NCBI GenBank assembly: GCA_037384225.1
Contig: JARROD010000145.1
Location: forward strand, 1-22,386
Source of the DNA: Exilibacterium sp.
GTDB taxonomy: Bacteria > Pseudomonadota > Gammaproteobacteria > Pseudomonadales > Cellvibrionaceae
Reading direction: 5' to 3'
Length of the DNA: 22,386 nucleotides
Below are positions 5,304 through 19,861 of this stretch, piece after piece; within the stretch, counting starts at the first letter, position 1; the number at the start of each line of letters is the position of its first letter. Made by a program: the position numbers and the translations under genes. The notes under the pieces are model-generated. The model had not been told where the DNA came from and made no database searches. It saw nothing but the letters and a program-made list of their open reading frames with translations.

Positions 5304-6005
5304 TCAAACGCTTTGGTATACCCTATCCTTGCATAAATTTTCGAGCTCAGGACCTTTTAGAGCGGTATTTTCAGGGGCGCGCGCAGATTTTTCTAACCGG
5401 AGCATAGCTATCCCTATGTGAGGATTAGAAAAATTGAGCACGACCCTGAAAATGCGTTTTCTGACACGTTCGTATCGTCGGGTTTTCGCCGTCAGCAGTG
5501 CGCAAATAACCCCCGCAACAGCGCCAAACAAATGCGATTCAAATGAAACGCCGGGTCTTCCCGGCAAAACACCGTAGAACATACCACCGTAAAAGAAAAT
5601 GACAAAAACGGCAATGACAATATTGATAAACCGGTGGTCAAACCAGGCCATGGCTATTGTCAGGCTCCACAAACCGAATATCCAGCCACTGGCGCCAATG
5701 TGAATCGCCGGGCGAGCAAACAGCCAAACCATCAAACCGGTTAAGGTGATGATTATAAAACTGCTCCACAGGTAAAACTTTATTCCCCGCAACAGACACA
5801 GGCCGCTGAAAACCATCAGCCCAATCAGGTTATTGACCAGGTGGGCGGTGTTTCCATGTAATAAGGGGGCAGAATAAATATGGGGGAGCGTTTCAACAAC
5901 CCGGGGAAAAATACCGAACCGGGAAAGTTGGTAGCCGGTAAATATATTCAAAAAATGTATGCCACTGATCACAGCGGCCAAGATGAGCAAAACTCTGATT
6001 TTCAA
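5304..6005 (-). CDS. Rhomboid-family intramembrane serine protease (GlpG-like).
   Basis: Rhomboid signatures are present: HGNTAHLVNNL (the HxxxxHLxxN motif), the catalytic GASGWIFGL (GxSG) and a TM6 His in HLFGAVAGV. The protein is polytopic and hydrophobic. The start is a TTG preceded by CGGAGTG, and this start is needed to include TM1/TM2. Confidence 0.85.
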   Translation of the reverse strand: MKIRVLLILAAVISGIHFLNIFTGYQLSRFGIFPRVVETLPHIYSAPLLHGNTAHLVNNLIGLMVFSGLCLLRGIKFYLWSSFIIITLTGLMVWLFARPAIHIGASGWIFGLWSLTIAMAWFDHRFINIVIAVFVIFFYGGMFYGVLPGRPGVSFESHLFGAVAGVICALLTAKTRRYERVRKRIFRVVLNFSNPHIGIAMLRLEKSARAPENTALKGPELENLCKDRVYQSV

Positions 6006-6093
6006 TTATTTTTCACTCCGATCACTTGCCGAAAGCACGCGTCGCCACATGAAAGTCGGGCCGGTTGTGCGCGCAGATGTTCGCAATCTTTAT

Positions 6094-9000
6094 TTATTCA
6101 CTTGCTTTTTTAACTTCATCAACGACTGAATTGACGGTTTTATTAGCACTCTTTTTACCCACTGTGACACTCGTTTCCAAGCTGCGCAGTTGTGCGGAAA
6201 TATCTTTCATTTTATCGTGGGTGCGCAAATCTATCTCAAGCTTTTTATCCATACTGCGAACCAGTGGAAATATACTGTGTTCAATCGTTTCCGCCAGAAC
6301 GCGCAGCAGCTTATCCATGCCGGGCACCGGTTGATTAACGACTTCAACATTGGGTTTGTTGACCGCCACCAGTTTAACCAGTTTTTCCAGCGCCAGTGTT
6401 ACCGATGTCAGTTCACTTTCCGCCGCCGGTTGCTCAGCGCTTCGTTGCGACTGTAACAGCAACCCTTTGCTGATATGGGTGAGACTCTGTACACCTTCAG
6501 CCATATCCTTCAACTGCACCACGATCTTGCCCGCTACGTCGGCATCATCGCCCCCCATCGCTTTGTTACGCAAAAAATCCTTTTTTATCTCTCCCCAGCG
6601 ACTTTGCTCGGCAGCGGTCATATTTCCGCGCAGCTCTGCCAACTTCAGAAGATTTTCCTCGGCTCCCGATGTCAGCAGTTGCGATTCACCAATATAGTGA
6701 TCCTCAATCATTTGCATCAGTTCCCGCTCATTCATGACCGCCGACACTTTTTCCGCCATTTTGTTCATATTGCGGTAACTGCCCTGCAGTTTGAACGGCG
6801 GCTCGGTACGGTATTTATCACTTTGCGCCGCCGAGGCAATATACTGCTGGTTAATGTTCAACACCACACGCTGAACCTTAAACAGCATGCGCAAGACAGC
6901 CGTGATTTCGTTGATTTCCGCCCCGCTGTACTGGTGCGACAAGTTAGTGGTGGTGACTTCTTCCGCCCTGGCCATGTCTATCAGTTTGTAGATATCGCTC
7001 ATGTCCCGCGTTGCCAAAGGCGCAAGCACGGGATTAGACGTTAGACAGTTTTCTATATAACTCAAGGAGAACTGCTCATCCATACCACCGAGTACATCCC
7101 CCAGATTATAAATATCCGCACGGTTGGCCAGCATGTCCGGAATTTTAAAGACTTGCCCGGATTCCGTATAAGGGTTGCCGGCCATAACCACACAGAATTT
7201 TTTCCCCCGCATATCGTAGGTTTTTGTTTTGCCTTTCCAGACACCTTCGATACGCCGGGTTCCATCACATAGTGATATAAACTTCTGTAGAAATTCCGGG
7301 TGGGTATGCTGAATATCGTCCAGATACAACATCACATTGCTGCCCATTTCCAGCCCGAGATTCAGCTTTATCAGTTCCTGCCGCGCCGTAGCATTGGGCG
7401 CTTGCTCAGGGTCGAGTGAGAGCACTTCGTGGCCCAGCGAAGGACAGTTGATTTTCATAAAAATCAGCCCCAGGCGGTTGGCAACGTATTCCATCAGCGT
7501 TGTCTTGCCGTATCCGGGCGGGGAAATCATCATCAAAAGCCCCATCAAATCCGTGCGTCTGCTTTCACCGACACTACCCACCTGTTTGGCCAGGTTATCA
7601 CCGATGATGGGCAGATAGGCTTCGTCGATTAGGCGGTTGCGTACAAATGAACTCAAGGGTTTTGGCTTGAGCTCTTCCAGACGCAGTTTTTCCCGTTCCC
7701 GCTGTACTATCTCCTGGCGAACCTGTAGGTATTTATAAAAGTTCGGCACATACACATCACGATGTTGTTCCATGCGCTGCCAATATTCATCCACGGCGAG
7801 GTTGAGCTGACGATTGCCGATAGTGGGATGTTCACCCAGCAAGCCATCGATCTGCAGTTCCAGATCGGTTTCGGTAGCGCGTCTATCGATGCGTTGATCA
7901 CCGTTGATAAGCGCCACCGCTTCAGGAATATAACGCCGCAAAGCCTGCAGGTTTTTATTCTCGACCAACGCCACCAACCACGCCGAGGTCAGGTTCCAAC
8001 GCTCATCCGGGCGCCCCTGCAGTTTTTCGAGCGCGACACTGTATTGCCGCCAGGTATCAGTATCGAGCGCCCGCTTTAGCTCATCGACCAGCCGCTGGGC
8101 GTATTTACTGCCGACAAACGCGGTACGCTCCCGCTCCAGTTCGGCCACCAGGTAGCGCGCCGCACGACTGATATCCGCTTCACTCACCGCAATAGGGTAG
8201 TGCTCAAAAAACACCGTCAGCGCTTTGCGGACCTCCGTCACCAGCAGATCGCTGGCATCACCGCTGGAAAAATGCTGCTGCATCAGCGCCGCCGACCGCG
8301 CGCGTTGCGTCCAGGTTTCATATCGTGACTGCCAGTGTTCGCGCTTCGAGCCATGGCGGCGCTCCACCTCCGCGAGCATTTTCGTTGGCGACGGCGAAAC
8401 CACTGTATTCGGCAGATTGTTCAACAGTTTAATATTGGCCCAGAACACCTGCGCCAAACCGCGGCACAATGGGTCAAAGCAGAGTAAGTCTGCACTGTCG
8501 ATGGCAGGTACCAGGCTGCTTAGGATGCGCGTCGCATCGTGATCGTGAATGCCTTTTTCATAAGCTTCTTTATAGCGTGGGGCGGCAAAGTCAGACACCA
8601 GTCTATCCAGTTTTCCCTGATCCCTGAGTGACTCCCGCAGCAGCGTCAGAGACAGGCCGTGGCGACCGTCGCGGGCTGCATCCAGTATCAACCAGGCCAG
8701 GTATTCGGCGCGGTAAACTGTTGCGCTTTCCGATTCCAGCGAGACATCCCAGTAGTCTTTTAAAGCCAAGAGGTCCGGGTGCGTTATCTGTTCGAAATAA
8801 TCCGTGCCGATCAAATGTGTGTAGAGCTTGCCCTCCCGCGGTATTATCGTCAAATCCAGTTCCTGCATATTGACACTGAATTTGTGCCTCGGACCCAGCT
8901 TGATAACCCGGCCGCCGTCCTCAAAAATATCGCTTTTATCCCGCAGCCCCCGCAGTGCCTGATCTTTTATCGCGTTGAAACGCGACTCCACATCGTCGGC

Positions 9001-11532
9001 TTTGACGGCGCTATCAAGTGCCCGCAGCTGTAGCACCAGCTCACGGATTTTCAATACCAGCGTATCGGAGGCAAAGTAGGTGTTTAGTTCATCGACTGCG
9101 GTGAATTTCAACGAGCGGCGCTCTATGCTCGCCAACATGCGCGCACAGGCATCGGCCACCGCTTGCGCTTTGCGCTGACGTTCGTCCAGCAACTGTTGTT
9201 TGTGGGATTCGAACGATTCGTAAACCTCCTCCCGCTTTTCCATAATATCGGCCAGAAACTGATCCTGGTCGCTGAACTGGCTCTCCAGCTCTTCGAGTTG
9301 CACCAACAAGCGGGACAGTTGTTCGTCGCATTTTTCCGGGGTTGAAGCCAACCCCAAAGCGTTGGTAATACTCTGGGTAAACAGTTTGAATTGTGCGGAG
9401 AATTGCGCCACAGCCTCCTTCGCACCCAGGCTTTTCCGCTTGTGCCTGGCCCCCGCCTTGCTTTGATTGAGCTTCGAATAAATCTCGGAAATGGAATCGA
9501 TAATACGCGTGCGAACAGTCGCATCCTGCACCTGCAGCGTTGTTACCAGTTCCGACAGCAAATCCAATCCGGCAGCCGTGGTTTCTATGTTTTCTATCAG
9601 CGGCGTCAGCACGGCGATGCTGTGTGCCACTTCGACTTCCCGGTTGAATCCGACGATTTTGTCCAAGTAAGGTGCCAAAGCCTGGTCGCCGGACAAAAAG
9701 GCGACTGTCTTTTCACTCAAATCAGTCTGCATTTCAGCCAATTGCCGATCCAGTGTTTCAATCCGCGCGGTGTCGATATAGCGCAGTTCCTTAATACTGA
9801 CAAGGTGGCCCCGCTGATGCCGGATGCGATCCAGAGCGGCGATATAGTCTTCCACCGATTCGCGATTTCCGGATTTCACGACACGCTCAATGGACTCCTG
9901 CTCGCGTTCGGCGGCGACCATGGCCTCGGCCGACTGCCCGCGAATGCTTTCGACTTTTTCAAACTCATCGATAACCAGCTCCGAGGTCGCGGCGATTTCC
10001 TTCAATAAATCACCGATACCATCGGTTTCCTGCTCCCCGATCCAGTAATAAGTATCAAACATCTTAGCGGCCGTCTTACCCAGTTCCTCGTACAGACGCA
10101 CATTAACTGCCGGGTTGTCGATGCGGCGGCAGATACTGTACAACTCGGAAATGCCGCGCACCAGCTCGGCGTTGCCTATACGACCAAAAAACGACTGGCT
10201 CACCGGTATCCTGCTGGCAAACTCCTCGCTCACAAATGGTGTATTCCAGATTTGCATAGGGTGAACCCGGGTCGGCTCACCTTCAGCGGTAAAAATGATC
10301 AGACGCCCCTCAGCCGACAGCGCATAACCGTGACTATAGATGGGGTTTTGTAAAGATTTTTGGATTAGGTTGTAGGCAAATAAGCCCACCACACCGCCTT
10401 GCGGTTCGTAAAACACATAGAGCACATCCTCACCGTTGGGCGAACGAATGCGCCTTTTGAATTTCACACCCGGCACTTGCTCGTCATAGGTTTTGTATTC
10501 CCCGGTTTGCAGGTAATAGCCACCCGGGAAAATTATCCCGTGATCCTCCGGCAACTGCACACAGGACTCGCCGATGGCATCGATCCGCAAAACGCTTTGA
10601 GTTAGTGTGTTGAATATCAAATAGCGCCAATCCTCTTCCCTATAAGGGCGAATTTTCAACAGAATCAGACACCCCACCGTAGCGTAAAAGACATCTGCAT
10701 CATCTAAAGACTGGGTTCTATCCTCGACCGGCTCGGTGTAAATGCCGAGACCGGTTTCCGTATTGTTTTCCACCTTTATCGTCAGGTTGCCACCGATCGT
10801 TTCAACAAAGATGCTGTCGAGAATATTGATATGGGGATGTCGGCCGTGCAAATTATCTTCCCGCGTCGTTTCGACCCATTCGAAATCATAGGCTGGAGGC
10901 AGTTGAATATCCCGTTCGCCGCGGTTGTCAATGTATTTGACGTCGCCACCGTCGGCCGACACCGACCAGCGAAAGACCCGGATATCGGTCAACCGTTCAC
11001 CGATCTGAAAGCCGGCCAGTAACTTTCCCTGATTGATCGACAACTGAATCAAGCGGGTATTTTTGTAATAGCGGTACAGCTCTTCAAAGTCATTGAGAAA
11101 CCCATTCTCGGATAAAAAACTTTCGCGCAGGGAAACAGGTTCCATTTCATAGCTTGTCTTCCCCCCCTCACCGGCACTTTCGCGAACCCGAAACAGGGAA
11201 AAAACATCTTCGACCCGGGTTTCTTTTTTCAAGCCGATAAAAACATTGTAACCGAACAGGAGCAATTCACCGACTTGAACAATATCTCTGGCGATGCAAT
11301 TGTTTTCTGTTCGCACCCTGACTCGACCGGCGACGCTCAGGTCAGATACACCGAACTCCTCCAACCGGGCTCGATTCAAATCGCGGGTTTTTGTATCCAG
11401 CCGCTTACCCTGCTCAACCAGACGTTTGCGGATAATTTCATAGGCTCCGCCTTCGGCGACCGCGCTGTCAACAACGTTATTGTCGGCCGTAGTATTACCA
11501 TCAACAGCGTCGAAAATTTCCTGCTGTGCCAT
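6094..11532 (-). CDS. Giant 1812-aa multi-domain protein with a MoxR/dynein-type (AAA_5-like) AAA+ ATPase domain near the C-terminus. The N-terminal region is beta-rich and the centre is a long alpha-helical/coiled-coil region. Function unknown.
   Basis: Walker A is ISPPGYGKTT (residues about 1337-1346, nt about 7498-7530). Walker B is VMLYLDDIQ. The CVVMAGNPYTESGQVFKIPDMLANRADIYNL segment resembles the AAA_5/MoxR sensor region. The 1812-codon ORF is uninterrupted and has a strong RBS (AAGGAAAC) 8 nt upstream. I saw no vWA/MIDAS motif and no N-terminal Walker A, so it is not SbcC/SMC-like. Confidence 0.85.
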   Translation of the reverse strand: MAQQEIFDAVDGNTTADNNVVDSAVAEGGAYEIIRKRLVEQGKRLDTKTRDLNRARLEEFGVSDLSVAGRVRVRTENNCIARDIVQVGELLLFGYNVFIGLKKETRVEDVFSLFRVRESAGEGGKTSYEMEPVSLRESFLSENGFLNDFEELYRYYKNTRLIQLSINQGKLLAGFQIGERLTDIRVFRWSVSADGGDVKYIDNRGERDIQLPPAYDFEWVETTREDNLHGRHPHINILDSIFVETIGGNLTIKVENNTETGLGIYTEPVEDRTQSLDDADVFYATVGCLILLKIRPYREEDWRYLIFNTLTQSVLRIDAIGESCVQLPEDHGIIFPGGYYLQTGEYKTYDEQVPGVKFKRRIRSPNGEDVLYVFYEPQGGVVGLFAYNLIQKSLQNPIYSHGYALSAEGRLIIFTAEGEPTRVHPMQIWNTPFVSEEFASRIPVSQSFFGRIGNAELVRGISELYSICRRIDNPAVNVRLYEELGKTAAKMFDTYYWIGEQETDGIGDLLKEIAATSELVIDEFEKVESIRGQSAEAMVAAEREQESIERVVKSGNRESVEDYIAALDRIRHQRGHLVSIKELRYIDTARIETLDRQLAEMQTDLSEKTVAFLSGDQALAPYLDKIVGFNREVEVAHSIAVLTPLIENIETTAAGLDLLSELVTTLQVQDATVRTRIIDSISEIYSKLNQSKAGARHKRKSLGAKEAVAQFSAQFKLFTQSITNALGLASTPEKCDEQLSRLLVQLEELESQFSDQDQFLADIMEKREEVYESFESHKQQLLDERQRKAQAVADACARMLASIERRSLKFTAVDELNTYFASDTLVLKIRELVLQLRALDSAVKADDVESRFNAIKDQALRGLRDKSDIFEDGGRVIKLGPRHKFSVNMQELDLTIIPREGKLYTHLIGTDYFEQITHPDLLALKDYWDVSLESESATVYRAEYLAWLILDAARDGRHGLSLTLLRESLRDQGKLDRLVSDFAAPRYKEAYEKGIHDHDATRILSSLVPAIDSADLLCFDPLCRGLAQVFWANIKLLNNLPNTVVSPSPTKMLAEVERRHGSKREHWQSRYETWTQRARSAALMQQHFSSGDASDLLVTEVRKALTVFFEHYPIAVSEADISRAARYLVAELERERTAFVGSKYAQRLVDELKRALDTDTWRQYSVALEKLQGRPDERWNLTSAWLVALVENKNLQALRRYIPEAVALINGDQRIDRRATETDLELQIDGLLGEHPTIGNRQLNLAVDEYWQRMEQHRDVYVPNFYKYLQVRQEIVQREREKLRLEELKPKPLSSFVRNRLIDEAYLPIIGDNLAKQVGSVGESRRTDLMGLLMMISPPGYGKTTLMEYVANRLGLIFMKINCPSLGHEVLSLDPEQAPNATARQELIKLNLGLEMGSNVMLYLDDIQHTHPEFLQKFISLCDGTRRIEGVWKGKTKTYDMRGKKFCVVMAGNPYTESGQVFKIPDMLANRADIYNLGDVLGGMDEQFSLSYIENCLTSNPVLAPLATRDMSDIYKLIDMARAEEVTTTNLSHQYSGAEINEITAVLRMLFKVQRVVLNINQQYIASAAQSDKYRTEPPFKLQGSYRNMNKMAEKVSAVMNERELMQMIEDHYIGESQLLTSGAEENLLKLAELRGNMTAAEQSRWGEIKKDFLRNKAMGGDDADVAGKIVVQLKDMAEGVQSLTHISKGLLLQSQRSAEQPAAESELTSVTLALEKLVKLVAVNKPNVEVVNQPVPGMDKLLRVLAETIEHSIFPLVRSMDKKLEIDLRTHDKMKDISAQLRSLETSVTVGKKSANKTVNSVVDEVKKASE

Positions 11533-11692
11533 AGTAGTTTCCTTTATCAGTTCTGCACCGAATATCGGGAATTGCCTTAGAAATACCCTCTACTCATCAA
11601 TCAACAACAGAGATCGGCATCGTCGCCCGGGTCCGTCGAAAACTCCGTTATCGGACTCGGTCAATCAGCTACTGTCAGCAACATGCCGGCAG

Positions 11693-11762
11693 GGCTTTGT
11701 TCATCGTTTCGCCCACCTAAGGTGCTAACCGAGCCGGTCCGAGGAGGCGAAACGATGAACAA
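11693..11762. repeat. Hairpin repeat element, copy 1. It forms a complete 70-nt hairpin and shares a 59-nt identical core with the copy at 17373-17431.
   Basis: The stem arms TTGTTCATCGTTTCGCC (11697-11713) and GGCGAAACGATGAACAA (11746-11762) are exact reverse complements. The loop is CACCTAAGGTGCTAACCGAGCCGGTCCGAGGA. The element lies between the flotillin stop codon and the giant-ATPase start codon. Confidence 0.8.
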
Positions 11763-11781
11763 CGCCGCCGGCAGGATATGC

Positions 11782-13761
11782 TCAGGCACTCACATTCTCC
11801 TCTTGAACGGTAAAACTCTCTGGCGCACTGTTATCCACCCCGTTGCCTTTGTTGTTGATGAATTTATCCAGCAGTGCGGTTACTGTTCCGCTCTTTGTGG
11901 CCAGCCCATCGACGGCTTTACCCAGTGACAGCGATTTGGCGAAGGTATCGAAGAAGTGCCCTTCGCCACCGACAATATCGATATGCGCTTTTTCCAGCGC
12001 AGTAGCGAGAACGTCCGCGTTTTCCCTGGCGACATCCTTGCCGGCTTCAATGGATGCAAGTGCTTCCTTAAGCGAGGTTTCCAGGCTCATGCGGAATTCT
12101 TCATGCTCGCGAGCCTTATCACTCATCGACCCCATAGCGTCGAATTTCTCGTTCAAACCATCAGCCTCGGCTTTAAACTGCTCCCGGGTGACCTGAGCCG
12201 CCGCCAAACCTACTTGCTTCTGAGCACTGGCTTCGGATTCACCTTTTGCGCCTATAACTGCCGCCTCGGCCAGTCCCACCTCACGCTGAGCGCTGGCCTC
12301 GGATTCACCCTTGGCGGCAATCACCCTGGCTTGCGCCATTCCTTCTTTTTCCAGTGCATCGGCCCTCGCCTCCTTGACTTTGGCCTCGGCCAGCCCCGGC
12401 GCTGCGCGCTCGGCCTGAATGCCCTCGGCCAGCTTTTTCTTCGCATCCGCTTCTCTGGCCGCGGCTTCCAAACGCGCCTGGGCCATGGTAGTGACTTCGT
12501 TGGCTTTGAACTTGGCCGCCTGCTCTTCGGCTTCGGCGACTTTTATCTGCTTCACCTTCTCCTCTTCGGCCACAGCTTCCGCGGCCAGCACCTGCACCTG
12601 CTTCTGCCGGTCGGCTTCTGAAACCTCGCGGACCTCCTTGATCTTCTCTTCCTCCATCGCCACGGTTTTATCCACTGACACGCGATCGCGAATTACATTG
12701 GCAATTTCTTTTTTCTCCACTTCGATGGCTTTTTCCGCCTCTATCGTCTGCAGCTCCACTTCACGCTTGCGCGCAACCACCTCCAGTTCCCGCGCCCGGA
12801 TCACTTTTTCTTCCTCTATCGTCACCGCGCGCAGACGATTCTGTTGCGCCACTTCGATTTCGCGTTTCTGATTTTCCCGCTGAACCGCCAGCGTCTGATC
12901 GGACTGAATGGTGGCGGCTTCCGACTTCAAACGCTCCTCTTCCTGCACCTTTATTGTTTCCGCCTCTTCACGGGCGCGAAGCGAGGCAACCTCGCGCTGC
13001 TGGCGGGCTTCCGCATCCGCCTGTTGACGCTCCAACTCCAGCATTGCCTCAGCGGTTTCAACATTTTTCTTTTTAATAGCCAACTCCTCGTCGCGCTCAA
13101 GCATATTGGTGTGTACGTTTTGCCGCGCTGTTAGCTCGGTGATTTTCTTAATACCCTCGGCGTCGAGGATATTGCTGGGATCCAGGGATTTCTTCGGCGT
13201 CTGTTCCAGATAGTCGATCGCCACGTCCTCCAGGACATAACCATTGAGATCGTCACCGATCACCTCGATAATCTTTTCCCGAAAATGGAGACGGTTTTCA
13301 AACAGCTGTACAAACTCAATTTTTTTGCCCACGGTTTTCAGGGCTTCGGAGAATTTCGCGGCGAACAGTTGATCGACAGCAGCCTTATCCGACGCCCGGC
13401 TGGCGCCAATGGATTTGGCCACCTTTAAAACGTCTTCCGCTGTTTCATTGACACGAAGATAGAATGCGACGGTGATATCGGCACGCATATTGTCTTTGCA
13501 GATCAACCCATCACTGCCCCGGCGATCGACCTCCAGCGTAATCAGCGATATTTTCATCAGCTCTTTTTTGTTAATAATCGGATAAACCAACGCCCCGGTG
13601 AAATGCACCTTCGGTGTTGAACTCATATCGTTTACGATAAGTGCAGTCCCCTGCTCAACTTTCACATAAAAGGCTTTAAACAGTGCCCCCACGCCTAAAA
13701 GGATAATAAAAAAGATACCAATTCCCGTCGCTATGGGCGCTATTATTGAGATGTCAGCCAT
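11782..13761 (-). CDS. yqiK: Flotillin-like SPFH/band-7 inner-membrane protein of the YqiK family, 659 aa, with a long Ala/Glu-rich coiled-coil C-terminus.
   Basis: There is an N-terminal TM helix (IIAPIATGIGIFFIILLGVGALF). It is followed by an SPFH core, then an EA-rich heptad region, then a flotillin-type C-terminal tail. The protein is longer than E. coli YqiK (553 aa, from memory) because of internal repeats. Confidence 0.9.
   Translation of the reverse strand: MADISIIAPIATGIGIFFIILLGVGALFKAFYVKVEQGTALIVNDMSSTPKVHFTGALVYPIINKKELMKISLITLEVDRRGSDGLICKDNMRADITVAFYLRVNETAEDVLKVAKSIGASRASDKAAVDQLFAAKFSEALKTVGKKIEFVQLFENRLHFREKIIEVIGDDLNGYVLEDVAIDYLEQTPKKSLDPSNILDAEGIKKITELTARQNVHTNMLERDEELAIKKKNVETAEAMLELERQQADAEARQQREVASLRAREEAETIKVQEEERLKSEAATIQSDQTLAVQRENQKREIEVAQQNRLRAVTIEEEKVIRARELEVVARKREVELQTIEAEKAIEVEKKEIANVIRDRVSVDKTVAMEEEKIKEVREVSEADRQKQVQVLAAEAVAEEEKVKQIKVAEAEEQAAKFKANEVTTMAQARLEAAAREADAKKKLAEGIQAERAAPGLAEAKVKEARADALEKEGMAQARVIAAKGESEASAQREVGLAEAAVIGAKGESEASAQKQVGLAAAQVTREQFKAEADGLNEKFDAMGSMSDKAREHEEFRMSLETSLKEALASIEAGKDVARENADVLATALEKAHIDIVGGEGHFFDTFAKSLSLGKAVDGLATKSGTVTALLDKFINNKGNGVDNSAPESFTVQEENVSA
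12220..12351. repeat. Intragenic tandem duplication of about 66 bp (22 aa) x2 inside the flotillin coiled-coil region.
   Basis: The DNA units CTGAGCACTGGCTTCGGATTCACC... and CTGAGCGCTGGCCTCGGATTCACCC... are adjacent. They encode ...VIAAKGESEASAQREVGLAEA / AVIGAKGESEASAQKQVGLAAA. Confidence 0.7.
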
Positions 13762-13936
13762 AAAAGTTACTCCATTTCCGTTTTGAGTTAAGCCGCGACA
13801 TTAACTGCCCTTGTTATGCTAAGGGACGTGCACGAAATAACTTCCGGCCCCTTTATCAGTAATAAAAAGGGGTTTCGAGGCGCCCGTCTGGTGTCGTTGC
13901 GAAAACGCCGGCATAGTGGGCCTACGTCAAGTTTTC

Positions 13937-14626
13937 TTATTCTGAAAATTCTTCCACTGAGATCACCCGATAGGTATTCTGTGCTTTGATATATTCCAGC
14001 AAAACAACCCTATCACCTCTTTTAAACACCTGATCCCCAGTGCTGCGGACCTTCAATATCAACCCGGCGCCGCCATCGTCCAAAACCGCCTCGCCAAACG
14101 TTTTATCGACCCGCGATGTCCGCACCACCGCCACCTGCCCAAGCACCAGCTTCTGCGTATGCTGCTGCGCCTTTTTGAATAACGGCCGCAGCGGTCTTAT
14201 CACTACGGCAGTGATTTTGACGGCGATATACAAAGACCCCACCAGAACCGGTAACCCCAGTAAATAACGAAACAGCCCGGCGGTAATAGCGGCCGGCAAA
14301 CAGTATACGATGTAATAGCAGACGAGCCAGCCCACCAGCGAAACGATGGACACAATGACAGTAACAGGAACACCGTTGAGCCCAAACCGCAGCATTAAAC
14401 CCGCCAGGCCTTCGGCGTTGGAAAAACCAGTATCCTGGTTCACATCGAGGGCGCCATCCGCATCGGGAATATCGAAATCGAGTATATCCAGTTCCACCAG
14501 CCCCAGGATAGCCACCAGCCAATAGAGGACACAGACAGCCAGAATAAAAGTAAAAATGGCGGTGGGAAACGAGGAAATATTCTGATAGAAAGGATTCATT
14601 CCCTCACTTAAAAATAATGCAAACAT
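13937..14626 (-). CDS. yqiJ: YqiJ-like short NfeD-family inner-membrane protein, the usual partner of flotillin YqiK.
   Basis: The N-terminus and TM region resemble E. coli YqiJ (PFYQNISSFPTAIFTFILAVCVLYWLVAILG). Multiple TM helices are followed by a soluble C-terminal OB-fold-like tail ending ...VVLLEYIKAQNTYRVISVEEFSE. It sits immediately upstream of the flotillin gene, as in yqiJK. The RBS is AGGGGCAGGAT. Confidence 0.8.
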   Translation of the reverse strand: MFALFLSEGMNPFYQNISSFPTAIFTFILAVCVLYWLVAILGLVELDILDFDIPDADGALDVNQDTGFSNAEGLAGLMLRFGLNGVPVTVIVSIVSLVGWLVCYYIVYCLPAAITAGLFRYLLGLPVLVGSLYIAVKITAVVIRPLRPLFKKAQQHTQKLVLGQVAVVRTSRVDKTFGEAVLDDGGAGLILKVRSTGDQVFKRGDRVVLLEYIKAQNTYRVISVEEFSE

Positions 14627-14739
14627 ATCCTGCCCCTTTCAACTGTATCCAAATAATCGCGGCGTCTCAGATAGTAATATGCCGATACGCTCTCCCTTTG
14701 TCCCTACAATCCAGCCCTAAGGGTCGTGCACTTCCCTAA

Positions 14740-15426
14740 TCATTTATCCTTTTTCAATCGCCTCAGAACATCATCGGCACTGCTGCCCCCGGGCGCGATA
14801 CCGGCTTTCTCTAAACGGGTCTGCAGGGAACCGTCTCCCTCCTCTTCGGCAAGCTCACTGGCCGCCTGCATTTGTGCCGCTTTCAATGCCTGTTTTTCCT
14901 TTATCCGCTCCAGCGAATCCATCGCCGTGCGCAACCTGGAGTTGGCACCACTGTGACGCTCCGCCACGGTCGCCTGCGCGCGCTGAACACTTTCCGTGGC
15001 CTTGACCGTATCCACCTGTTGCTTTAAGCGCTTAATATTGCCTTCCGCCAATTTAATCGCGGTGCGCAACTTACCCGCACTGGCGGCAAACTCGACACCA
15101 GTGCGCAACTCGCCGGCAAGTTGATTTTCCAGCCCGGCGACCTTTTTCGCCACTTCCCGAGCCAACTCCTCCTCGCGTTTGCCCAGTGCCTTTACAACAT
15201 AATCTTCGTGTTCGGCGATGTCCTTTTTCAGCTTCTGCGCCTTTTCTTCGGAAATTTTTTGTCTGGCAATAATAGCGGCGAGACTATCTTTTGATTGTTT
15301 CAGTTCTTCGGAAGCATCGCGCACTTCCTGATCGAGTATCCGCAGTGCCTGGCTGTCGACAATCGCCTCTCCCGCCTCATTTACGCCCCCACGCAAAGCG
15401 GTCATCATTTTCGCCCAAATATTCAT
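14740..15426 (-). CDS. yjfJ: PspA/IM30-family protein (the bacterial ESCRT-III-like family), YjfJ-type.
   Basis: The translation aligns by eye along its length with E. coli YjfJ (recalled from memory): ILDQEVRDASEELKQS, VDTVKATESVQRAQATV and LEKAGIAPGGSSADDVLRRLK match MLEQHIRDAKAELDKA, MEVVKATEAMQRAQQAV and LAEAGIGGSNKSSAQDVLARLQ. The RBS is AAGGA, 9 nt upstream. Confidence 0.9.
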   Translation of the reverse strand: MNIWAKMMTALRGGVNEAGEAIVDSQALRILDQEVRDASEELKQSKDSLAAIIARQKISEEKAQKLKKDIAEHEDYVVKALGKREEELAREVAKKVAGLENQLAGELRTGVEFAASAGKLRTAIKLAEGNIKRLKQQVDTVKATESVQRAQATVAERHSGANSRLRTAMDSLERIKEKQALKAAQMQAASELAEEEGDGSLQTRLEKAGIAPGGSSADDVLRRLKKDK

Positions 15427-15447
15427 AGCGTTAATCCTTAGGTTGAT

Positions 15448-15536
15448 AGCTTCTCAATAACCCGGGGGTAATTGTGCCTTCGATCCGACGGCCATCCGCC
15501 TGGCATTGTGCCCACCCCGGTTTATTGAGAAGTTAC
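15448..15536. repeat. Intergenic REP/MITE-like element, compact complete copy. Terminal inverted repeats CTTCTCAATAACCCGGGGG ... CCCCGGTTTATTGAGAAG flank a conserved core.
   Basis: The core GTGCCTTCGATCCGACGGCCATCCGCCTGGCATTGTGCC matches the ends of copy 1. The roughly 19-bp terminal inverted repeats are nearly perfect. The element fills the 110-bp gap between the yjfI-like stop and the pspA-like start. Confidence 0.8.
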
Positions 15537-16163
15537 TTAGGTTGCAAGGGTAATATTTAGAAATTCAGCATAGGCTTCCGTCGCCTGGATGACGTTGCTG
15601 GCCAGCACTTCGATTTCAAACACCACATTCGGCAGAATCGCGGTGGAACTCAAGGCGCCGAACATGTGGTAGTAGTCAGTCCCGTCCGGGGAAGTGTCCA
15701 GGCTCACAGTGGACAGGGGGAAGTATTTGTGCGTGCGTAGCACCGCCTCGTTAAAGCCGGCCCGGTCAATCACGTCGTCAACCGGCCAGAGGACGGCTTC
15801 GACGACAATCTGTTCTCCGGCAACCGTGAGAAAAACCGGCAAATCGCCGTATTCGTGCAAAACCATATGCAGTGAAGGCTCGACGCCCTCAATAAGCTCA
15901 AGGTCGGCCTCTTCACCACTGAACAGTTCGGTTTCCTTAAGTGCGGCATAGAGACCGGACGTTGTCCAGGCATGCATTGCATCGATCATGTGCGTGACTC
16001 CTTCTTCCGATTCAAGTCCGTTGGCGTCGCGAAGCCGCCTTTCCAGAACTGCAAGTTGCTTGGCGTATTCCGGGCGAATCCAAACTTCTTTCTTTACCAA
16101 CCCCTTTTCACGCAGGCGACGTCTAAACTCGCGTTGATAGTATGCCGATGATTTTTTGCTCAT
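15537..16163 (-). CDS. yjfI: YjfI-like DUF2170 protein with an additional basic N-terminal extension of about 58 aa.
   Basis: The C-terminal DYYHMFGALSSTAILPNVVFEIEVLASNVIQATEAYAEF matches E. coli YjfI (EYYIVFGALSLKSSLEDILLEITSLVDNALDLAEITEEY, from memory). The gene is directly upstream of the yjfJ homologue, as in E. coli. The N-terminal residues KKSSAYYQREFRRRLREKGLVKKEVWIRPEYAKQLAVLERRLR are absent from E. coli YjfI. The RBS is weak, and an internal start at MIDAMHAW is possible. Confidence 0.75.
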   Translation of the reverse strand: MSKKSSAYYQREFRRRLREKGLVKKEVWIRPEYAKQLAVLERRLRDANGLESEEGVTHMIDAMHAWTTSGLYAALKETELFSGEEADLELIEGVEPSLHMVLHEYGDLPVFLTVAGEQIVVEAVLWPVDDVIDRAGFNEAVLRTHKYFPLSTVSLDTSPDGTDYYHMFGALSSTAILPNVVFEIEVLASNVIQATEAYAEFLNITLAT

Positions 16164-16180
16164 AGAGGTAAAGATAAATT

Positions 16181-16295
16181 ATCACATGTAAGCTGTCAAC
16201 AAATCACATGTAACGATTTGTAATAATTACATGTAATTTAATAGAGGGGTTGCAATGCGCGGCGACCTATAGCAAACAGCGTTTGCTATAGGTCG
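16181..16295. promoter_or_regulatory. Candidate operator/UAS region upstream of the yjfI-like gene. It contains three phased TTACATGT(A/G)A sites and a perfect 15-bp inverted repeat.
   Basis: The ACATGT cores lie at 16184-16189, 16206-16211 and 16229-16234, spaced 22 and 23 bp apart. The third site, TTACATGTAA, is a perfect 10-bp palindrome. CGACCTATAGCAAAC-agc-GTTTGCTATAGGTCG at 16263-16295 has perfect 15-bp arms. The sites lie 20-130 bp upstream of the ATG at 16163. Confidence 0.5.
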
Positions 16296-16304
16296 AAGCC
16301 TGGT

Positions 16305-16358
16305 AGCTTCTCAATAACCCGGGGTATTGTAGCGTCGATCCGGCGGCCAACTCAGAAG
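16305..16358. repeat. Partial copy of the REP/MITE-like element (left arm plus core), in inverted orientation.
   Basis: AGCTTCTCAATAACCCGGGGTATTGTAGCGTCGATCCGGCGGCCA matches the left half of the element at 15448-15536. It lies between the pspF-like stop codon and the yjfI regulatory region. Confidence 0.65.
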
Positions 16359-16408
16359 TCTCGCTGGGCTTTTCCCAGACCGAGGACGGTGGGATGGGGC
16401 GAAAAGGA

Positions 16409-17347
16409 TTATTGGTTGGTGTAGCCATGGGAAATATTAAGCATTTTTATACGATTGTAGAGTGTGCGTTTCTGGATATGCAGCTCATTGACCACTTTTT
16501 GTATAGTGCCGCCGTGGCGGGTGAGCGAATTTTCAATCAATACTTTTTCCACCCTCTTTAATCTTTCTTTCAAGGGGACGGTGATAAGACTCTGGCCAAA
16601 GCCGGATTCGGGAAGCGGCATCAAACCGAGGACAAAACGTTCTGCGGAGGCCTTCAATTCCCGATAGTTGCCCGGCCAGTTGTGACAAAGCAGGCTGTGC
16701 TGAACGACTTCATCGGCTTCAATCTGCGCGCGTTTGTGTTTTGCGCAGGCCTCCAATACAAAAGCATTAAACAGCGGAACAATCACTTCAGGTCTAGCTC
16801 GCAGTGCGGGCAACTGGATTTTTACAACACTCAAACGATAATACAGATCCCTCCGGAATTTTTTCTGCTCAACCAAATTTTCAAGTGGAATTTTCGTTGA
16901 CACAATAACCCGCATATCGACCGGTATAAAGTGTGTCGACCCCAGGCGCTCCACTCCCCGGCTTTCTAAAACTCTCAACAACTTCGCCTGCATTGTCAGC
17001 GACATGCTGTCAATTTCGTCCAGATAAAGTGTACCCTTGTTCGATGCTTCCACGTAACCGCAGCGGGACTTTTGCGCCCCAGTAAAAGCACCCGAGACGA
17101 CGCCAAACAATTCACTTTCCGCCAAAGACTCAGGTATTGCTGCACAGTTTACAGCGACGAATTCACCACTGCGACGGGATACCTCATGTATTTTTCGCGC
17201 CACCGTATGTTTCCCTGCCCCTGTTTCACCCTCGATAACGAGGTCCACTTGGGCAGCCCCCACTTCGTTGATAATTGTCCTTATTTGAGAAAACGTATCT
17301 GACTCACTTTGCGCCGGACGAGCATTGTCAACAAAGGATAACGTCAT
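16409..17347 (-). CDS. pspF: PspF-like sigma54 enhancer-binding protein. It has an AAA+ sigma54-activation domain and a C-terminal Fis-type HTH, and no N-terminal receiver or sensor domain.
   Basis: Walker A is GETGAGKH (about residue 45). The sigma54-contact GAFTGA motif, ESELFG, an arginine-finger region and a C-terminal HTH (TIQKVVNELHIQKRTLYNRIKML) are present. The domain layout is that of E. coli PspF. The ORF track starts at 17362 (MEFLIM...). The ATG at 17347 (MTLSF) has a proper GGAG Shine-Dalgarno 9 nt upstream, so I prefer it. Confidence 0.85.
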   Translation of the reverse strand: MTLSFVDNARPAQSESDTFSQIRTIINEVGAAQVDLVIEGETGAGKHTVARKIHEVSRRSGEFVAVNCAAIPESLAESELFGVVSGAFTGAQKSRCGYVEASNKGTLYLDEIDSMSLTMQAKLLRVLESRGVERLGSTHFIPVDMRVIVSTKIPLENLVEQKKFRRDLYYRLSVVKIQLPALRARPEVIVPLFNAFVLEACAKHKRAQIEADEVVQHSLLCHNWPGNYRELKASAERFVLGLMPLPESGFGQSLITVPLKERLKRVEKVLIENSLTRHGGTIQKVVNELHIQKRTLYNRIKMLNISHGYTNQ

Positions 17348-17372
17348 GATTAAAAACTCCATAGAAAAGTTA

Positions 17373-17431
17373 GGCTTTGTTCATCGTTTCGCCCACCTAA
17401 GGTGCTAACCGAGCCGGTCCGAGGAGGCGAA
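17373..17431. repeat. Hairpin repeat element, copy 2. The 59-nt core is identical to 11693-11751 but the right stem arm is missing.
   Basis: GGCTTTGTTCATCGTTTCGCCCACCTAAGGTGCTAACCGAGCCGGTCCGAGGAGGCGAA is identical to copy 1 in the same orientation. It sits 11 bp upstream of the pspF-like ORF start at 17362. Confidence 0.8.
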
Positions 17432-17697
17432 GTCCCTCCAGAGACACGCCGTAAACCCTTCCCTGGGGGCTCGAAACGCCAAAAGTTAAAAACTGTTCAG
17501 CCCACAGGCAGGGTTGCTGTAACACTAAAACCTTGGCGGTTTTTTTGTAATGACAATCACTGTGGTAGGGTTAATAACAACTGCCCACCTTTACAGCCGA
17601 TGAATCTCGGCGGTATGATTGTTTAGATTTTAGTTTAATTGGAAAATTTCAATGATCTATCTAGTTTGCGATAAAATGGACCTGGGCCAAGGCAAAC

Positions 17698-17713
17698 TGG
17701 CATTTTTATAGCA
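17698..17713 (+). promoter_or_regulatory. Sigma54-like -24/-12 match (TGGCAT-N5-TAGCA) on the plus strand. It has no annotated downstream gene.
   Basis: TGGCATTTTTATAGCA has GG and GC at the canonical 10-nt spacing, against the consensus TGGCAC-N5-TTGCA. A 29-codon mini-ORF (17747-17836) with a GGGGAAAG Shine-Dalgarno lies about 35 bp downstream. This could be a chance match. Confidence 0.25.
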
Positions 17714-17805
17714 ATCACAATTTACGGAAATGGGGAAAGTAAAAAATGGCGCGGAAACAGGCAGATCCGCAATACGTTTGTAACTTATCAACAACCCGGA
17801 GCGTT

Positions 17806-17869
17806 GTGCTTTCGATTCGGTTGATGTCCGCCTGACATTGTGTCTACCCGCGGTTATTGAAAGGGTTAC
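17806..17869. repeat. Degenerate partial copy of the REP/MITE-like element (core plus right arm).
   Basis: GTGCTTTCGATTCGGTTGATGTCCGCCTGACATTGTGTCTACCCGCGGTTATTGAAAGGGTTAC aligns with the right half of copy 1 (…TCCGCCTGACACTGTGCCTGCCCCGGGTTATTGAGAAGTTAC). It overlaps the stop codon of the clan-CD peptidase. Confidence 0.6.
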
Positions 17870-19311
17870 TCAATAAATCCTTCTTCGCATTCCTGCAAGA
17901 TTTGGCGCTGACTTTTTTCCTTCTCGGTAGCATAGCGTTCAAACCATTTTTCAAGTCTGGCTAACTTTTTCATTCTGAATATTTTGTCTACCTGCGTGAC
18001 AGTCCTTACCAAATCCAGCGCTTCCTGCTGCATCTGCAAATAACGCTGTTGCGATTCCACCAACACCTGATATTTCGGGTAGGCAATTATTTGCCCTTGG
18101 ATATCCTCCAGATCATTAGAAATGGTACGCTGGTACTCATAGGTGTAGGGATTAAATAATTCCGGCCAGTGGGATCTGAGCCGGGACTGAATGTCGTATT
18201 GCGTCTGTTCTATTTGTCGCAGTAACTGGTGCATCGCCGTATTTTGATCCGAGATCCGCTGTTGTAAGTGTGCTTTTTCCTTCAGCAACGTTTGCGCATC
18301 CAGCGTCCAACCGTTTCTGGTTGCGACAGTTTCGGCTATTTTCCAGTACTCACTTTGCTTGTTTTCTACCGCACTGTCCCAACGCAAATACCACGGTTGC
18401 CATTGTTCCAGATAGGTTTCACTGGTCGCCCGGGAGAGGTCGCTGCTGAGGGCATTGCGTAGTGTATATAAATGAGCTTCACGAAGGCTGACTTTGTGGT
18501 CCCCATTCAAATCCGGATCGCCCTCCAGCGCCGTGCCCAGACGCGACTGCCCATTGAGCGCGGCAAAAAAGTAGGTGGTGTAATCGCGAAACTCGGCCTT
18601 ATTGACGCCAAGGTCACACCCCTCAGCCTGGCGCCACGCCGATTCCGCCATAAAGCCGCAGCGCGGTTGTCGGGAAAATTCTGAGGAAAAAGGGCTTTCG
18701 TAGATCAGTTTATGAAAAGCGCCAGAATAACATTGTGTCAATACAAACCTGACTGTGGTTTCAGGCGGAGCCTTGTCCAATAACTCATCGAGTTCACTGA
18801 CCGTTAGTTTTTCATCACCCCAGAGTTTTAAATAGTTCTTATTAACATCATCGTCGTTGATACCGCCGTGACCATTGTAAATCAACAGGATATCGTCCCG
18901 GCCCGACAAGGCGGCAAAATCCCTTGTCAATCCACGCTCCAACGATGATTTATCAGTACCGCCTTTCACACGGGAAAGTTCATGCGTTTTATACCTGATT
19001 CCATTGTCACCGATGCCTGTGAAAACCCTCGCCAGAGGCTGCAAAAATTCAACCGACTCTTCTCTGGGAGCCCAGTAAGCGACGTCCTTGGTACCCGACA
19101 GACCAGCGCTGTAATAAGTGCTCAAGGCGGCGCCCTGTCCCTGCAACAATTGTTCGAGCCAGCTGACGTTTTGTTCAATTTGCCCCTGGGAGTTTTCAAT
19201 ATGATTGCCACCGCCGATTAACCATACTTTGGTTGTGGCAACTGTGGCGACAGGCATCCCCAGGGCGAGGACCGTGAGGCTTTTCACAAGTGTCTTCATT
19301 TTCTGTCTCAT
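17866..19311 (-). CDS. Secreted clan-CD cysteine peptidase (caspase/legumain-like, C13/C14-type His-Cys dyad) with a C-terminal helical/coiled-coil domain.
   Basis: There is a signal peptide (MKTLVKSLTVLALGMPVATVA). The catalytic-dyad motifs are LIYNGHGG and, about 46 residues later, LTQCYSGAF (the HG...Cx[S]G pattern typical of clan CD). The start overlaps the upstream membrane-protein stop in an ATGA. Confidence 0.7.
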   Translation of the reverse strand: MRQKMKTLVKSLTVLALGMPVATVATTKVWLIGGGNHIENSQGQIEQNVSWLEQLLQGQGAALSTYYSAGLSGTKDVAYWAPREESVEFLQPLARVFTGIGDNGIRYKTHELSRVKGGTDKSSLERGLTRDFAALSGRDDILLIYNGHGGINDDDVNKNYLKLWGDEKLTVSELDELLDKAPPETTVRFVLTQCYSGAFHKLIYESPFSSEFSRQPRCGFMAESAWRQAEGCDLGVNKAEFRDYTTYFFAALNGQSRLGTALEGDPDLNGDHKVSLREAHLYTLRNALSSDLSRATSETYLEQWQPWYLRWDSAVENKQSEYWKIAETVATRNGWTLDAQTLLKEKAHLQQRISDQNTAMHQLLRQIEQTQYDIQSRLRSHWPELFNPYTYEYQRTISNDLEDIQGQIIAYPKYQVLVESQQRYLQMQQEALDLVRTVTQVDKIFRMKKLARLEKWFERYATEKEKSQRQILQECEEGFIE

Positions 19312-19805
19312 GACGCAGCACTATTCCTTTGCCCGATCGCCAGTACCGAGTAGCGGATTGCAAACCATAGACAGGCCGCCGCATACACAAGCACGATCAT
19401 CTGGGCCACTCCCAGCAGCACCAACACCAACAGACTCCCCCCCAAAACCAGCCAGGGTAAAAACGGCATCAGCAACCCGGTAAGCCGGGCACCGTGGTAG
19501 AATATGAGTGCGCCGCCAAAAGCGGCTGCACACAACGGTGCCGCCGCCTTCCAGTCGCTCAGCAGTTGCAACAGGAGACGGCGCCTGGAGTCGAATAAAA
19601 GCAGGCGCATAAACTCAGCATCGCCCCGGAACCAGTCGAGCCCTATTTGCACCACGACGGCCGTGGGGTAAATTGCTACAATGCACACAATCAAGGTTAG
19701 TATTCTCAAAACCATACTCATTTCGGCGCGATTTTGCTGATCATGGATTTGTTGGCATTGTTCATCGTGCCGCCCACCAACAGTGCCAACCGATCCGGCG
19801 GTCAT
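19308..19805 (-). CDS. Small hydrophobic membrane protein of unknown function.
   Basis: Several TM helices are evident. The stop codon overlaps the peptidase start (ATGA at 19308-19311). The start is uncertain: an internal ATG at 19721 (MSMVLRIL) begins the first TM helix, and the upstream 28 residues are polar with no Shine-Dalgarno. Confidence 0.55.
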   Translation of the reverse strand: MTAGSVGTVGGRHDEQCQQIHDQQNRAEMSMVLRILTLIVCIVAIYPTAVVVQIGLDWFRGDAEFMRLLLFDSRRRLLLQLLSDWKAAAPLCAAAFGGALIFYHGARLTGLLMPFLPWLVLGGSLLVLVLLGVAQMIVLVYAAACLWFAIRYSVLAIGQRNSAAS

Positions 19806-19861
19806 CCGAAGGCGCAGCCAATGTGCTGATACCGGTGAATTAACAGCAGAGATGATACAGC

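Follow-up and report, generated by a model that had tools for sequence, protein, structure and literature searches.

The 22,386-nucleotide stretch of Exilibacterium sp. DNA analyzed here (contig JARROD010000145.1; "the window" refers to the whole of this stretch) carries on its minus strand what is probably an orthologue of the bac operon of Pseudomonas aeruginosa, a PspA-centred membrane-maintenance system, with a palindrome-controlled sigma-70-type promoter and a mechanism of repression that depends on BacA. We place the probability of this reading at about 0.7. An initial annotation had described seven head-to-tail genes in this region as one undescribed membrane-stress or membrane-remodelling module, consisting of a PspF-like sigma-54 enhancer-binding protein (EBP), a DUF2170 protein, a PspA homologue, a short NfeD/YqiJ protein, a flotillin, a giant ATPase and a rhomboid protease. 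All seven genes were confirmed from the open reading frames (ORFs) at the positions then given (Table 1), and the spacers between them measure 88 to 249 bp. The module cannot be called undescribed, since its DUF2170 protein already bears the name BacA in NCBIfam and its gene set is covered by Macé 2008 and Wallart 2024 for the P. aeruginosa genes bacABCDEF, and by Ravi 2024 (PMC11237479) for an operon of the same composition. The bac operon joins a bacterial relative of ESCRT-III, a flotillin scaffold and an AAA+ machine of 1,800 residues. It is found widely among Pseudomonas and the marine Gammaproteobacteria, and in P. aeruginosa it has effects on both biofilm and virulence and is responsive to infection by phage. 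What our analysis adds to this picture is the exclusion of the EBP, a conserved operator together with a probably leaderless promoter, the N-terminal part of BacA, and a measure of how often the rhomboid gene is present.

The identity of the locus is indicated by the DUF2170 protein, which matches the NCBIfam equivalog NF050185 ("biofilm formation regulator BacA") at positions 1 to 203 of 206 with 321 bits, above the cutoff of 300. In P. aeruginosa, the "biofilm-associated cluster" was defined as PA3732-PA3729 (Macé 2008). It was later shown by RT-PCR in strain PA14 that the six genes bacA to bacF are carried on one transcript; the study that showed this also found that a bacA mutant overproduces BacB-F 6- to 13-fold, and determined the crystal structure of BacA (Wallart 2024, PMC10948618). 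The published phenotypes concern biofilm, rhamnolipid, swarming and virulence (Macé 2008; PMC10948618). Ravi 2024 (PMC11237479) described, from computational work, an operon coding for CesT/Tir-PspA, a TM-band-7-flotillin protein, a novel AAA+ protein and a YqiJ/YuaF protein, to which a phospholipase D (PLD) hydrolase is sometimes added.

An ATPase-anchored scan of species-representative genomes provided 80 loci, onto which the window proteins were mapped by tblastn; the 69 loci with enough upstream sequence were used for counts of gene order. All 80 are gammaproteobacterial, and come from Cellvibrionaceae, Oceanospirillales-like taxa, many Pseudomonas species, Arenicella and Kangiellaceae. 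The genes for BacA, PspA, the YqiJ-like protein, flotillin and the ATPase stand colinear in this order in 58 of the 69 loci, with P. paraeruginosa and over 20 Pseudomonas species among them, and nine further loci retain the last three of these genes. The YqiJ-like gene lies directly upstream of the flotillin gene in approximately 67 of the 69. The operon is near-universal and colinear in Pseudomonas and Cellvibrionaceae, whereas the genes that flank it are not syntenic between genera. These results support the view that the DUF2170, PspA, YqiJ-like, flotillin and giant ATPase genes, often together with the rhomboid gene, form one conserved system. The proposal of a single seven-gene system can accordingly be retained for six of its genes, which are linked far beyond chance, but not for the EBP gene, and no other regulator gene was found to be conserved in the cluster in the tblastn survey of the loci. 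One MAG contig (L081; MAG, metagenome-assembled genome) at first looked contrary to this linkage, as unrelated genes for a HAD hydrolase, a LacI protein and a GGDEF-EAL protein stand ahead of its flotillin gene. The switch falls exactly at a 66-bp repeat (window positions 13871 to 13936; L081 positions 7689 and 21649 to 21714) directly after the YqiJ-like gene, and the same MAG carries EBP-bacA-bacB-bacC on a separate 4.1-kb contig. Because the break coincides with the repeat and the missing genes are present on another contig of the same MAG, L081 is probably an assembly misjoin and does not reflect biology.

The 70 nucleotides upstream of bacA are conserved from Cellvibrionaceae to Pseudomonas and contain a -35 element (TTGAC), a 17-nt spacer and a -10 element (TAAnnT), the last of which ends 7 nt ahead of the bacA ATG. 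The conserved region also holds two or three palindromes of the form aTTACATGTrAt, one of them upstream of the -35 element and one within the spacer. The core [TC]ACATGT[AG] is found 126 times in the 1.78 Mb that the loci span, and 117 of these copies, from 54 loci, fall in the 120 bp ahead of bacA, against an expectation of 0.46; the window holds exactly three cores, all at 16181 to 16237. The arrangement is regular, with a box spacing of 21 to 24 bp in 49 of 53 loci and a distance from the last box to the bacA ATG of 26 to 27 nt in 44 of 53 loci (24 to 29 nt in 49). In P. paraeruginosa (L062, positions 5630 to 5706) the corresponding region shows two TTACATGT boxes and a promoter of the form TTGAAG-17-TAGTGT. 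Only 2 of 52 loci have a Shine-Dalgarno-like 4-mer ahead of bacA, compared with 55 of 57 for the next gene. Owing to this scarcity and to the short distance between the -10 element and the ATG, the bacA mRNA is probably leaderless.

The same region provided no credible indication of sigma-54-dependent transcription. The consensus TGGCAC-N5-TTGCW had fewer matches in the window than in shuffled sequences, and a -24/-12 scan of the whole window in which GG and GC were required gave no credible site, its 9/12 match at 17698 being on the wrong strand and at an insertion junction. When the regions upstream of bacA were searched in 56 loci, 9/12 matches were found only at 179 to 357 nt (in L022 and six Pseudomonas or Aquipseudomonas loci) and none at promoter distance; the P. 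paraeruginosa locus contained no -24/-12 match of at least 9/12. The sigma-54 site that Wallart et al. proposed is thus not supported by conservation.

BacA itself appears to consist of two domains. The protein is a Pfam DUF2170 member (E value of 5.9e-49), and the crystal structure of P. aeruginosa BacA (PDB 8Q8O) matches only residues 64 to 203 of the window protein (E value of 6e-42). The C-terminal CesT-like domain was modelled by AlphaFold2 with a predicted local distance difference test (pLDDT) score above 90 and superposes on 8Q8O with a TM-score of 0.95. Likewise, E. coli YjfI (133 aa) aligns to BacA (208 aa) over residues 95 to 201 only. The N-terminal domain lies outside the crystallised protein, as 8Q8O corresponds to residues 64 to 203, and its approximately 50 residues (KSSAhYQREyRrRLREqGLVKKEVWIrPE...) are the most conserved stretch of BacA, in which 21 of the first 45 positions are invariant and the net charge is about +9. 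AlphaFold2 models it with moderate confidence as a helix, an extended segment and a second helix. A profile of this domain detected 144 cluster representatives among 1.84 billion proteins, many of which are whole proteins of 44 to 70 aa. These stand-alone proteins (P0421-P0494) are homologous to the BacA N-terminal domain and share the pattern M..S.AER.reYRqRmRdqGLVkkeVWI.PE...Lk..Ek.LR. Because the domain forms whole proteins of 44 to 70 aa alone, we regard it, from these sequence comparisons, as an independent module.

What this module resembles is less definite. The MazE-like antitoxin family (PF11455) is matched by 13 of 22 BacA N-terminal domains, at best with a sub-threshold E value of 0.009; the stand-alone relatives score no higher than 20.5 bits, the gathering score being 22. 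The NCBIfam model UrfF ("plasmid repression protein F") did not exceed 29 bits, where its cutoff is 100. The weak matches to the two families are nevertheless consistent, since they recur in BacA N termini and in the stand-alone proteins. Pfam gave nothing useful on a single BacA N terminus, the weak signals having emerged only from scanning many members, and the profile returned only noise against the PDB. A link to the operator is suggested by five loci in which the DUF2170 protein is without this domain and the boxes are missing as well.

The remaining operon proteins were assigned as follows. The BacB homologue matches PspA_IM30 (PF04012) with an E value of 3.1e-45 over positions 1 to 218 of 220, that is, over the full-length domain; its identity is 36% with E. 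coli YjfJ (E value of 3e-32) and 25% with E. coli PspA, and its PDB matches are Vipp1/PspA structures. Pfam thus upheld the DUF2170 and PspA_IM30 domain calls of the initial annotation, and equally the Rhomboid call and that of a receiver-less Sigma54_activat protein. Pfam returned no match for the 659-aa and 229-aa proteins, and Band_7 was not reached at an E value of 0.01 or lower for the former. For both, family profiles drawn from 29 related loci were therefore aligned by hhalign with proteins of E. coli K-12. The profile of the 659-aa protein matched E. coli YqiK with a probability of 99.9% (E value of 1.4e-32, 397 columns), which bears out the earlier SPFH/flotillin call and makes assignment to the YqiK-type flotillins secure at the level of sequence. 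The profile of the 229-aa protein matched YqiJ weakly (probability of 73.9%, E value of 2.8e-5, 140 columns), and the protein had no Pfam or PDB match. Its designation as YqiJ-like is hence a weak one so far as profile similarity goes and is backed by its conserved place upstream of the flotillin gene; of the earlier NfeD/YqiJ call it is this position beside flotillin that stands best. PDB sequence searches with the flotillin, the YqiJ-like protein and the whole ATPase gave only noise.

The 1,812-aa ATPase, initially called a MoxR/AAA_5-type protein, is indeed giant and has an AAA+ module, but it consists chiefly of DUF3686 (residues 45 to 496, E value of 7e-202), followed by DUF7902 (residues 617 to 701), a long helical middle and a single AAA+ module at approximately 1330 to 1480 with Walker A (GYGKT) and Walker B (LYLDD) motifs; its Pfam AAA/AAA_5 matches (residues 1333 to 1461) are weak. 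On the reading favoured here, BacE would be an AAA+ ATPase of beta-propeller/coiled-coil build. Thousands of its orthologues are labelled "DNA repair ATPase/protein" after the Pfam description of DUF3686, and one JGI record names a homologue as the tRNA methyltransferase MnmC. The conserved neighbourhood of membrane-protein genes suggests that the "DNA repair" names are misleading.

The rhomboid protein matches PF01694 (E value of 2.2e-18), and it looks catalytically active because the HxxxxHxxxN and GASG motifs and the His in ESHLFG are all intact. Relative to L081, a 111-bp indel at approximately 5455 alters the C-terminal tail (233 aa in the window, 184 aa in the MAG) and leaves the catalytic core of six transmembrane segments unaffected. 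A rhomboid gene is found directly downstream of the ATPase gene in 36 of the 69 loci, either alone (12 loci) or followed by a PLD gene (24 loci), and 7 further loci have one at another place in the cluster; PLD alone follows the ATPase in 6 loci and neither gene in 27. Pfam models of the PLD family had no match among the window's other genes, the window DNA not having been searched with a PLD query. The rhomboid-bearing operon is common and seems not to have been pointed out before. Its frequency as a sixth gene suggests a proteolytic step inside the SPFH microdomain.

From the features of the N-terminal domain, its co-occurrence with the boxes, and the derepression reported for the bacA mutant, we propose as the simplest model that BacA represses its own operon. 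With their invariant basic N-terminal domain, BacA dimers would attach to the palindromes and so repress the presumably leaderless transcript that bacA leads, while the CesT-like domain would hold BacB. Membrane damage would draw BacB to the membrane, shift the balance between BacA and BacB, and derepress the operon; such a switch would have the logic of PspA-PspF control but dispense with sigma-54. BacC and BacD may build an SPFH microdomain at the membrane, in which the BacE ATPase could remodel BacB polymers, as Ravi et al. suggested by analogy with Vps4 and ESCRT-III (PMC11237479), and in which the rhomboid protease, the PLD enzyme or both might process a membrane protein or lipid. The full version of this proposal, in which BacA is a hitherto unrecognised two-domain autorepressor that acts at the ATTACATGTAAT operators through its small basic N-terminal module, a distant relative of MazE and UrfF, and senses the free pool of BacB, and in which the rhomboid protease is a regular member of an SPFH-rhomboid-AAA+ hub, is held tentatively, at slightly under even odds. 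If it is true, the operon would have reinvented PspA-PspF feedback independently of sigma-54, the sigma-54 model published for bac in P. aeruginosa would have to be corrected, and the rhomboid protease would belong regularly, although this has not been reported until now, to a hub analogous to SLP2-PARL-YME1L. The part that places BacA at the palindromes of a leaderless sigma-70 promoter is concrete and cheap to test, and it runs counter to the sigma-54 site that has been proposed in print.

The EBP gene directly upstream of bacA encodes a protein with Sigma54_activat, AAA_lid and HTH_8 domains (Pfam) and no receiver. An EBP gene is present within 10 kb in only 1 of the 80 loci, where its product is 42% identical and it lies downstream on the opposite strand. 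Two MAG contigs, L083 and L084, are 97 to 98% identical to the window on both flanks, and in them a 481-aa upstream gene runs straight into bacA; relative to both, the window has an extra segment of 1,420 bp that carries the EBP gene and REP-like repeats, with an imperfect 19-bp direct repeat at its ends. In L085, a third MAG, EBP, bacA, bacB and bacC are found on one contig. The adjacency of the EBP gene and bacA is consequently real but polymorphic, being present in L085 and absent from L083 and L084. The closest named homologues of the protein, at 55 to 60% identity, are the receiver-less HrpS/HrpR proteins of Dickeya, Pectobacterium, Erwinia and Pseudomonas, whereas similarity to E. coli PspF (38% identity) is confined to the AAA+ core and the PspF equivalog TIGR02974 gave 203 bits, below its cutoff of 443. 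The EBP gene is a recent, strain-specific insertion outside the bac operon, and its product is HrpS/HrpR-like and not PspF. The claim that a PspF-like activator belongs to the module could not be sustained, given its absence from 79 of 80 loci, its position on a polymorphic indel and its HrpS/HrpR-like sequence.

Several observations weigh against the reading of BacA as repressor of a sigma-70-type bac promoter. The N-terminal domain was modelled with pLDDT scores of only 57 to 77; its MazE-like and UrfF similarities, all below curated thresholds, constitute a functional lead and not family membership; and its co-occurrence with the boxes is phylogenetically clustered, since the five loci that lack both seemingly represent one or two divergent clades. 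In addition, the bacA mutant of the literature was made by transposon insertion, so that read-through, and not the loss of a repressor, could explain the downstream overexpression (PMC10948618), a sigma-54 site has been proposed upstream of P. aeruginosa bacA (PMC10948618, Figure 4B), and deletion of the flotillin gene, whose product is PaFlo3 in a 2026 survey of PA14 SPFH proteins, had almost no phenotype in PA14. In an alternative explanation, an unlinked factor binds the boxes, with BacA acting only as a chaperone of BacB and its N-terminal domain serving, for example, in protein or membrane binding. The sub-threshold similarities to DNA-binding families, the lack of any solved structure that matches the domain, and the fact that regulation by CesT-like proteins usually works through a switch of partners and not through contact with DNA (PMC10948618) would all agree with this. 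We nevertheless consider it doubtful, as in several orders the boxes occur almost exclusively in bacA promoters and are absent where the DUF2170 protein has no N-terminal domain, the cluster has no further conserved regulator gene, and the bacA mutant overproduces BacB-F (PMC10948618). In favour of the main reading, BacA has been predicted to interact with BacB with an AlphaFold2 interaction probability of 0.981 (PMC13092808). Another possibility, that all seven genes form one sigma-54 module in which the EBP acts as PspF under the control of the PspA-like protein, draws on the PspF-type architecture of the EBP (AAA+ plus HTH, no receiver), on its position directly upstream on the same strand, on the recurrence of this adjacency in the independent MAG contig L085, and on the sigma-54 site of Wallart 2024 (PMC10948618). 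It is nonetheless very unlikely: besides the single downstream, antisense EBP gene among related loci, the indel that is missing from two near-identical genomes, and the HrpS/HrpR-type homologues, the spacer between the EBP gene and bacA contains no TGGCAC-N5-TTGC-like site with at least 9/12 matches, and the sigma-70-type promoter is intact downstream of the EBP insertion.

The function of the cluster could also be viewed differently from membrane maintenance through the bac operon. The initial annotation had raised, as a speculation, an anti-phage or abortive-infection system that works through membrane remodelling or damage, and PA3728-PA3732 do belong to a set of 17 genes whose expression rises in every phage-infected sample of P. 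aeruginosa (PMC12041424); the accessory rhomboid and PLD enzymes differ between genomes, as do the flanking genes between genera. Yet the induction of PA3728-PA3732 is compatible with a Psp-like stress response, any of which would be expected to react to phage, and the published phenotypes (PMC10948618) concern other functions. PADLOC gave no meaningful match for the six operon proteins, and only the AAA domain of the EBP met RtcR-type models; a scan of the window revealed no nuclease, sensor or other typical defence genes in the flanks; and the near-universal colinear operon of Pseudomonas and Cellvibrionaceae is unlike patchy defence islands. Because of the absent PADLOC matches, the flanks free of defence genes and the broad, vertical-looking distribution, a defence system is unlikely. 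Extremely improbable is a DNA-repair ATPase in a merely coincidental neighbourhood, as would follow from the Pfam title of DUF3686 ("ATPase involved in DNA repair") and from the many NCBI records named "DNA repair ATPase". The ATPase gene is fixed directly downstream of the YqiJ-like and flotillin genes in about 67 of 69 loci, and is cotranscribed and coregulated with the bac genes in P. aeruginosa (PMC10948618), no DNA-binding or nuclease domain was found in the protein by Pfam scan, and no paper on DUF3686 was found by full-text literature search.

Table 1. Features of the bac region in the window
Feature	Position	Strand	Product or sequence	Basis or remark
EBP gene	16409-17362; likely start 17347 (GGAG ahead of it)	minus	312-317 aa	ORF
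bacA homologue (DUF2170/CesT-like + N-terminal basic domain)	15537-16163	minus	208 aa	Pfam, NCBIfam, PDB 8Q8O
bacB homologue (PspA/IM30, ESCRT-III superfamily, YjfJ type)	14740-15426	minus	228 aa	Pfam
bacC homologue (YqiJ/YuaF-like, NfeD-type membrane protein; weak match)	13937-14626	minus	229 aa	hhalign, position
bacD homologue (flotillin-type SPFH protein, YqiK family)	11782-13761	minus	659 aa	hhalign
bacE homologue (giant ATPase)	6094-11532	minus	1812 aa	DUF3686, DUF7902, AAA+ module
Rhomboid intramembrane serine protease	5304-6005	minus	233 aa	Pfam, motifs
Putative bacA promoter/operator region	16171-16237	minus		conserved boxes, sigma-70-like match
Palindromic boxes	16226-16237, 16203-16214, 16181-16192	minus	ATTACATGTAAT (16226-16237)	
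Predicted -35 element	16194-16199	minus	TTGACA	
Predicted -10 element	16171-16176	minus	TATCTT	ATG 7 nt later; no Shine-Dalgarno
Strain-specific 1,420-bp segment carrying the EBP gene (16409-17347)	16287-17706	minus		absent from L083, L084
Palindromic REP/MITE-like element, ~74 bp	11693-11766 (flotillin-ATPase spacer)		GGCGTTGTTCATCGTTTCGCC...GGCGAAACGATGAACAAAGCC	repeat search
Second REP/MITE-like copy	17373-17431			59 bases identical to first copy (100%)
Weaker REP/MITE-like copy	19754-19812			

The locus, which comes from an uncultured relative of the Cellvibrionaceae, is approximately 99% identical to the MAG GCA_050298575.1. Among its intergenic repeats (Table 1), the element resembling repetitive extragenic palindromes (REP) and miniature inverted-repeat transposable elements (MITE) is or recently was mobile, as L081 and L082, which are otherwise 98.6 to 99% identical, lack the copy in the flotillin-ATPase spacer. 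A second family of short repeats (CCCCGGGTTATTGAGAAGCTACCA, GCCTTCGATCCGRCGGCCATCCG) occurs in direct and inverted orientation at 132 to 182, 15444 to 15536, 16301 to 16353 and 17778 to 17868; these repeats occupy most of the unusually long gaps of the operon and flank the EBP insertion. Terminator-like hairpins are not in excess in the window (13, versus 15.8 in shuffled sequence), and an Rfam scan of the window, including the 500 bp upstream of the EBP gene, revealed no structured RNA. Farther upstream, two overlapping minus-strand ORFs of 481 and 165 aa (17866 to 19311 and 19308 to 19805) have no Pfam, NCBIfam or PADLOC match. They lie downstream of genes for a carbamoyltransferase (19862 to 21550) and an Acetyltransf_6/FemAB-like GNAT protein (21547 to 22380), with synteny in L083 and L084, and may form a small uncharacterised modification or biosynthesis operon.

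Among known systems, the closest is bacABCDEF of P. aeruginosa (PA3732-PA3727 / PA14_16140-16200), in which the first five genes have the same order as in the window. Identity between the window and P. paraeruginosa L062, the nearest relative of P. aeruginosa among the loci sampled, is about 52 to 55% for BacA, 56% for BacB, 49% for BacC, 65% for BacD and 58% for BacE, and the boxed promoter ahead of bacA is common to both. They differ in the sixth gene, which codes for a PLDc_2 hydrolase in P. paraeruginosa (L062:15225-15932, equivalent to bacF) and for a rhomboid protein in the window, and in the HrpS-like EBP gene, which was inserted upstream of bacA in the lineage of the window and has no counterpart in the P. 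aeruginosa-type operon. The operon of Ravi 2024 (PMC11237479) comprises the same set of domains, with the same proposal of ESCRT-like, ATP-dependent assembly or remodelling beneath the membrane. In that paper PLD appears as an optional extra gene, whereas the word rhomboid does not occur in its text, and the promoter boxes and the N-terminal domain of BacA are not described.

The yjfIJ and yqiJK genes of E. coli code for homologues of four of the proteins of the window operon. In E. coli K-12, as the initial annotation had correctly stated, these two pairs are unlinked, with no EBP or giant ATPase nearby; they also have no rhomboid gene, yjfIJ is part of a polyamine-related operon, and YjfI (133 aa) lacks the N-terminal domain of BacA. 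The mitochondrial SPY complex consists of the stomatin-like scaffold SLP2, the rhomboid protease PARL and the AAA protease YME1L. It shares with the bac operon the combination of an SPFH scaffold, a rhomboid protease and an AAA+ machine, a likeness that is one of analogy only; the components are not orthologous, and BacE has no protease domain. The E. coli Psp system (pspF/pspABCDE) differs from the bac operon in several respects: BacB is of the YjfJ type and only 25% identical to PspA, no PspB or PspC family member was found among the window genes in Pfam scans, the bac promoter appears to be of the sigma-70 and not the sigma-54 type, and the adjacent EBP is neither a PspF orthologue nor conserved. 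Both systems, however, have a PspA-family effector and are induced by phage, and for both a negative feedback has been proposed in which the availability of the effector controls transcription.

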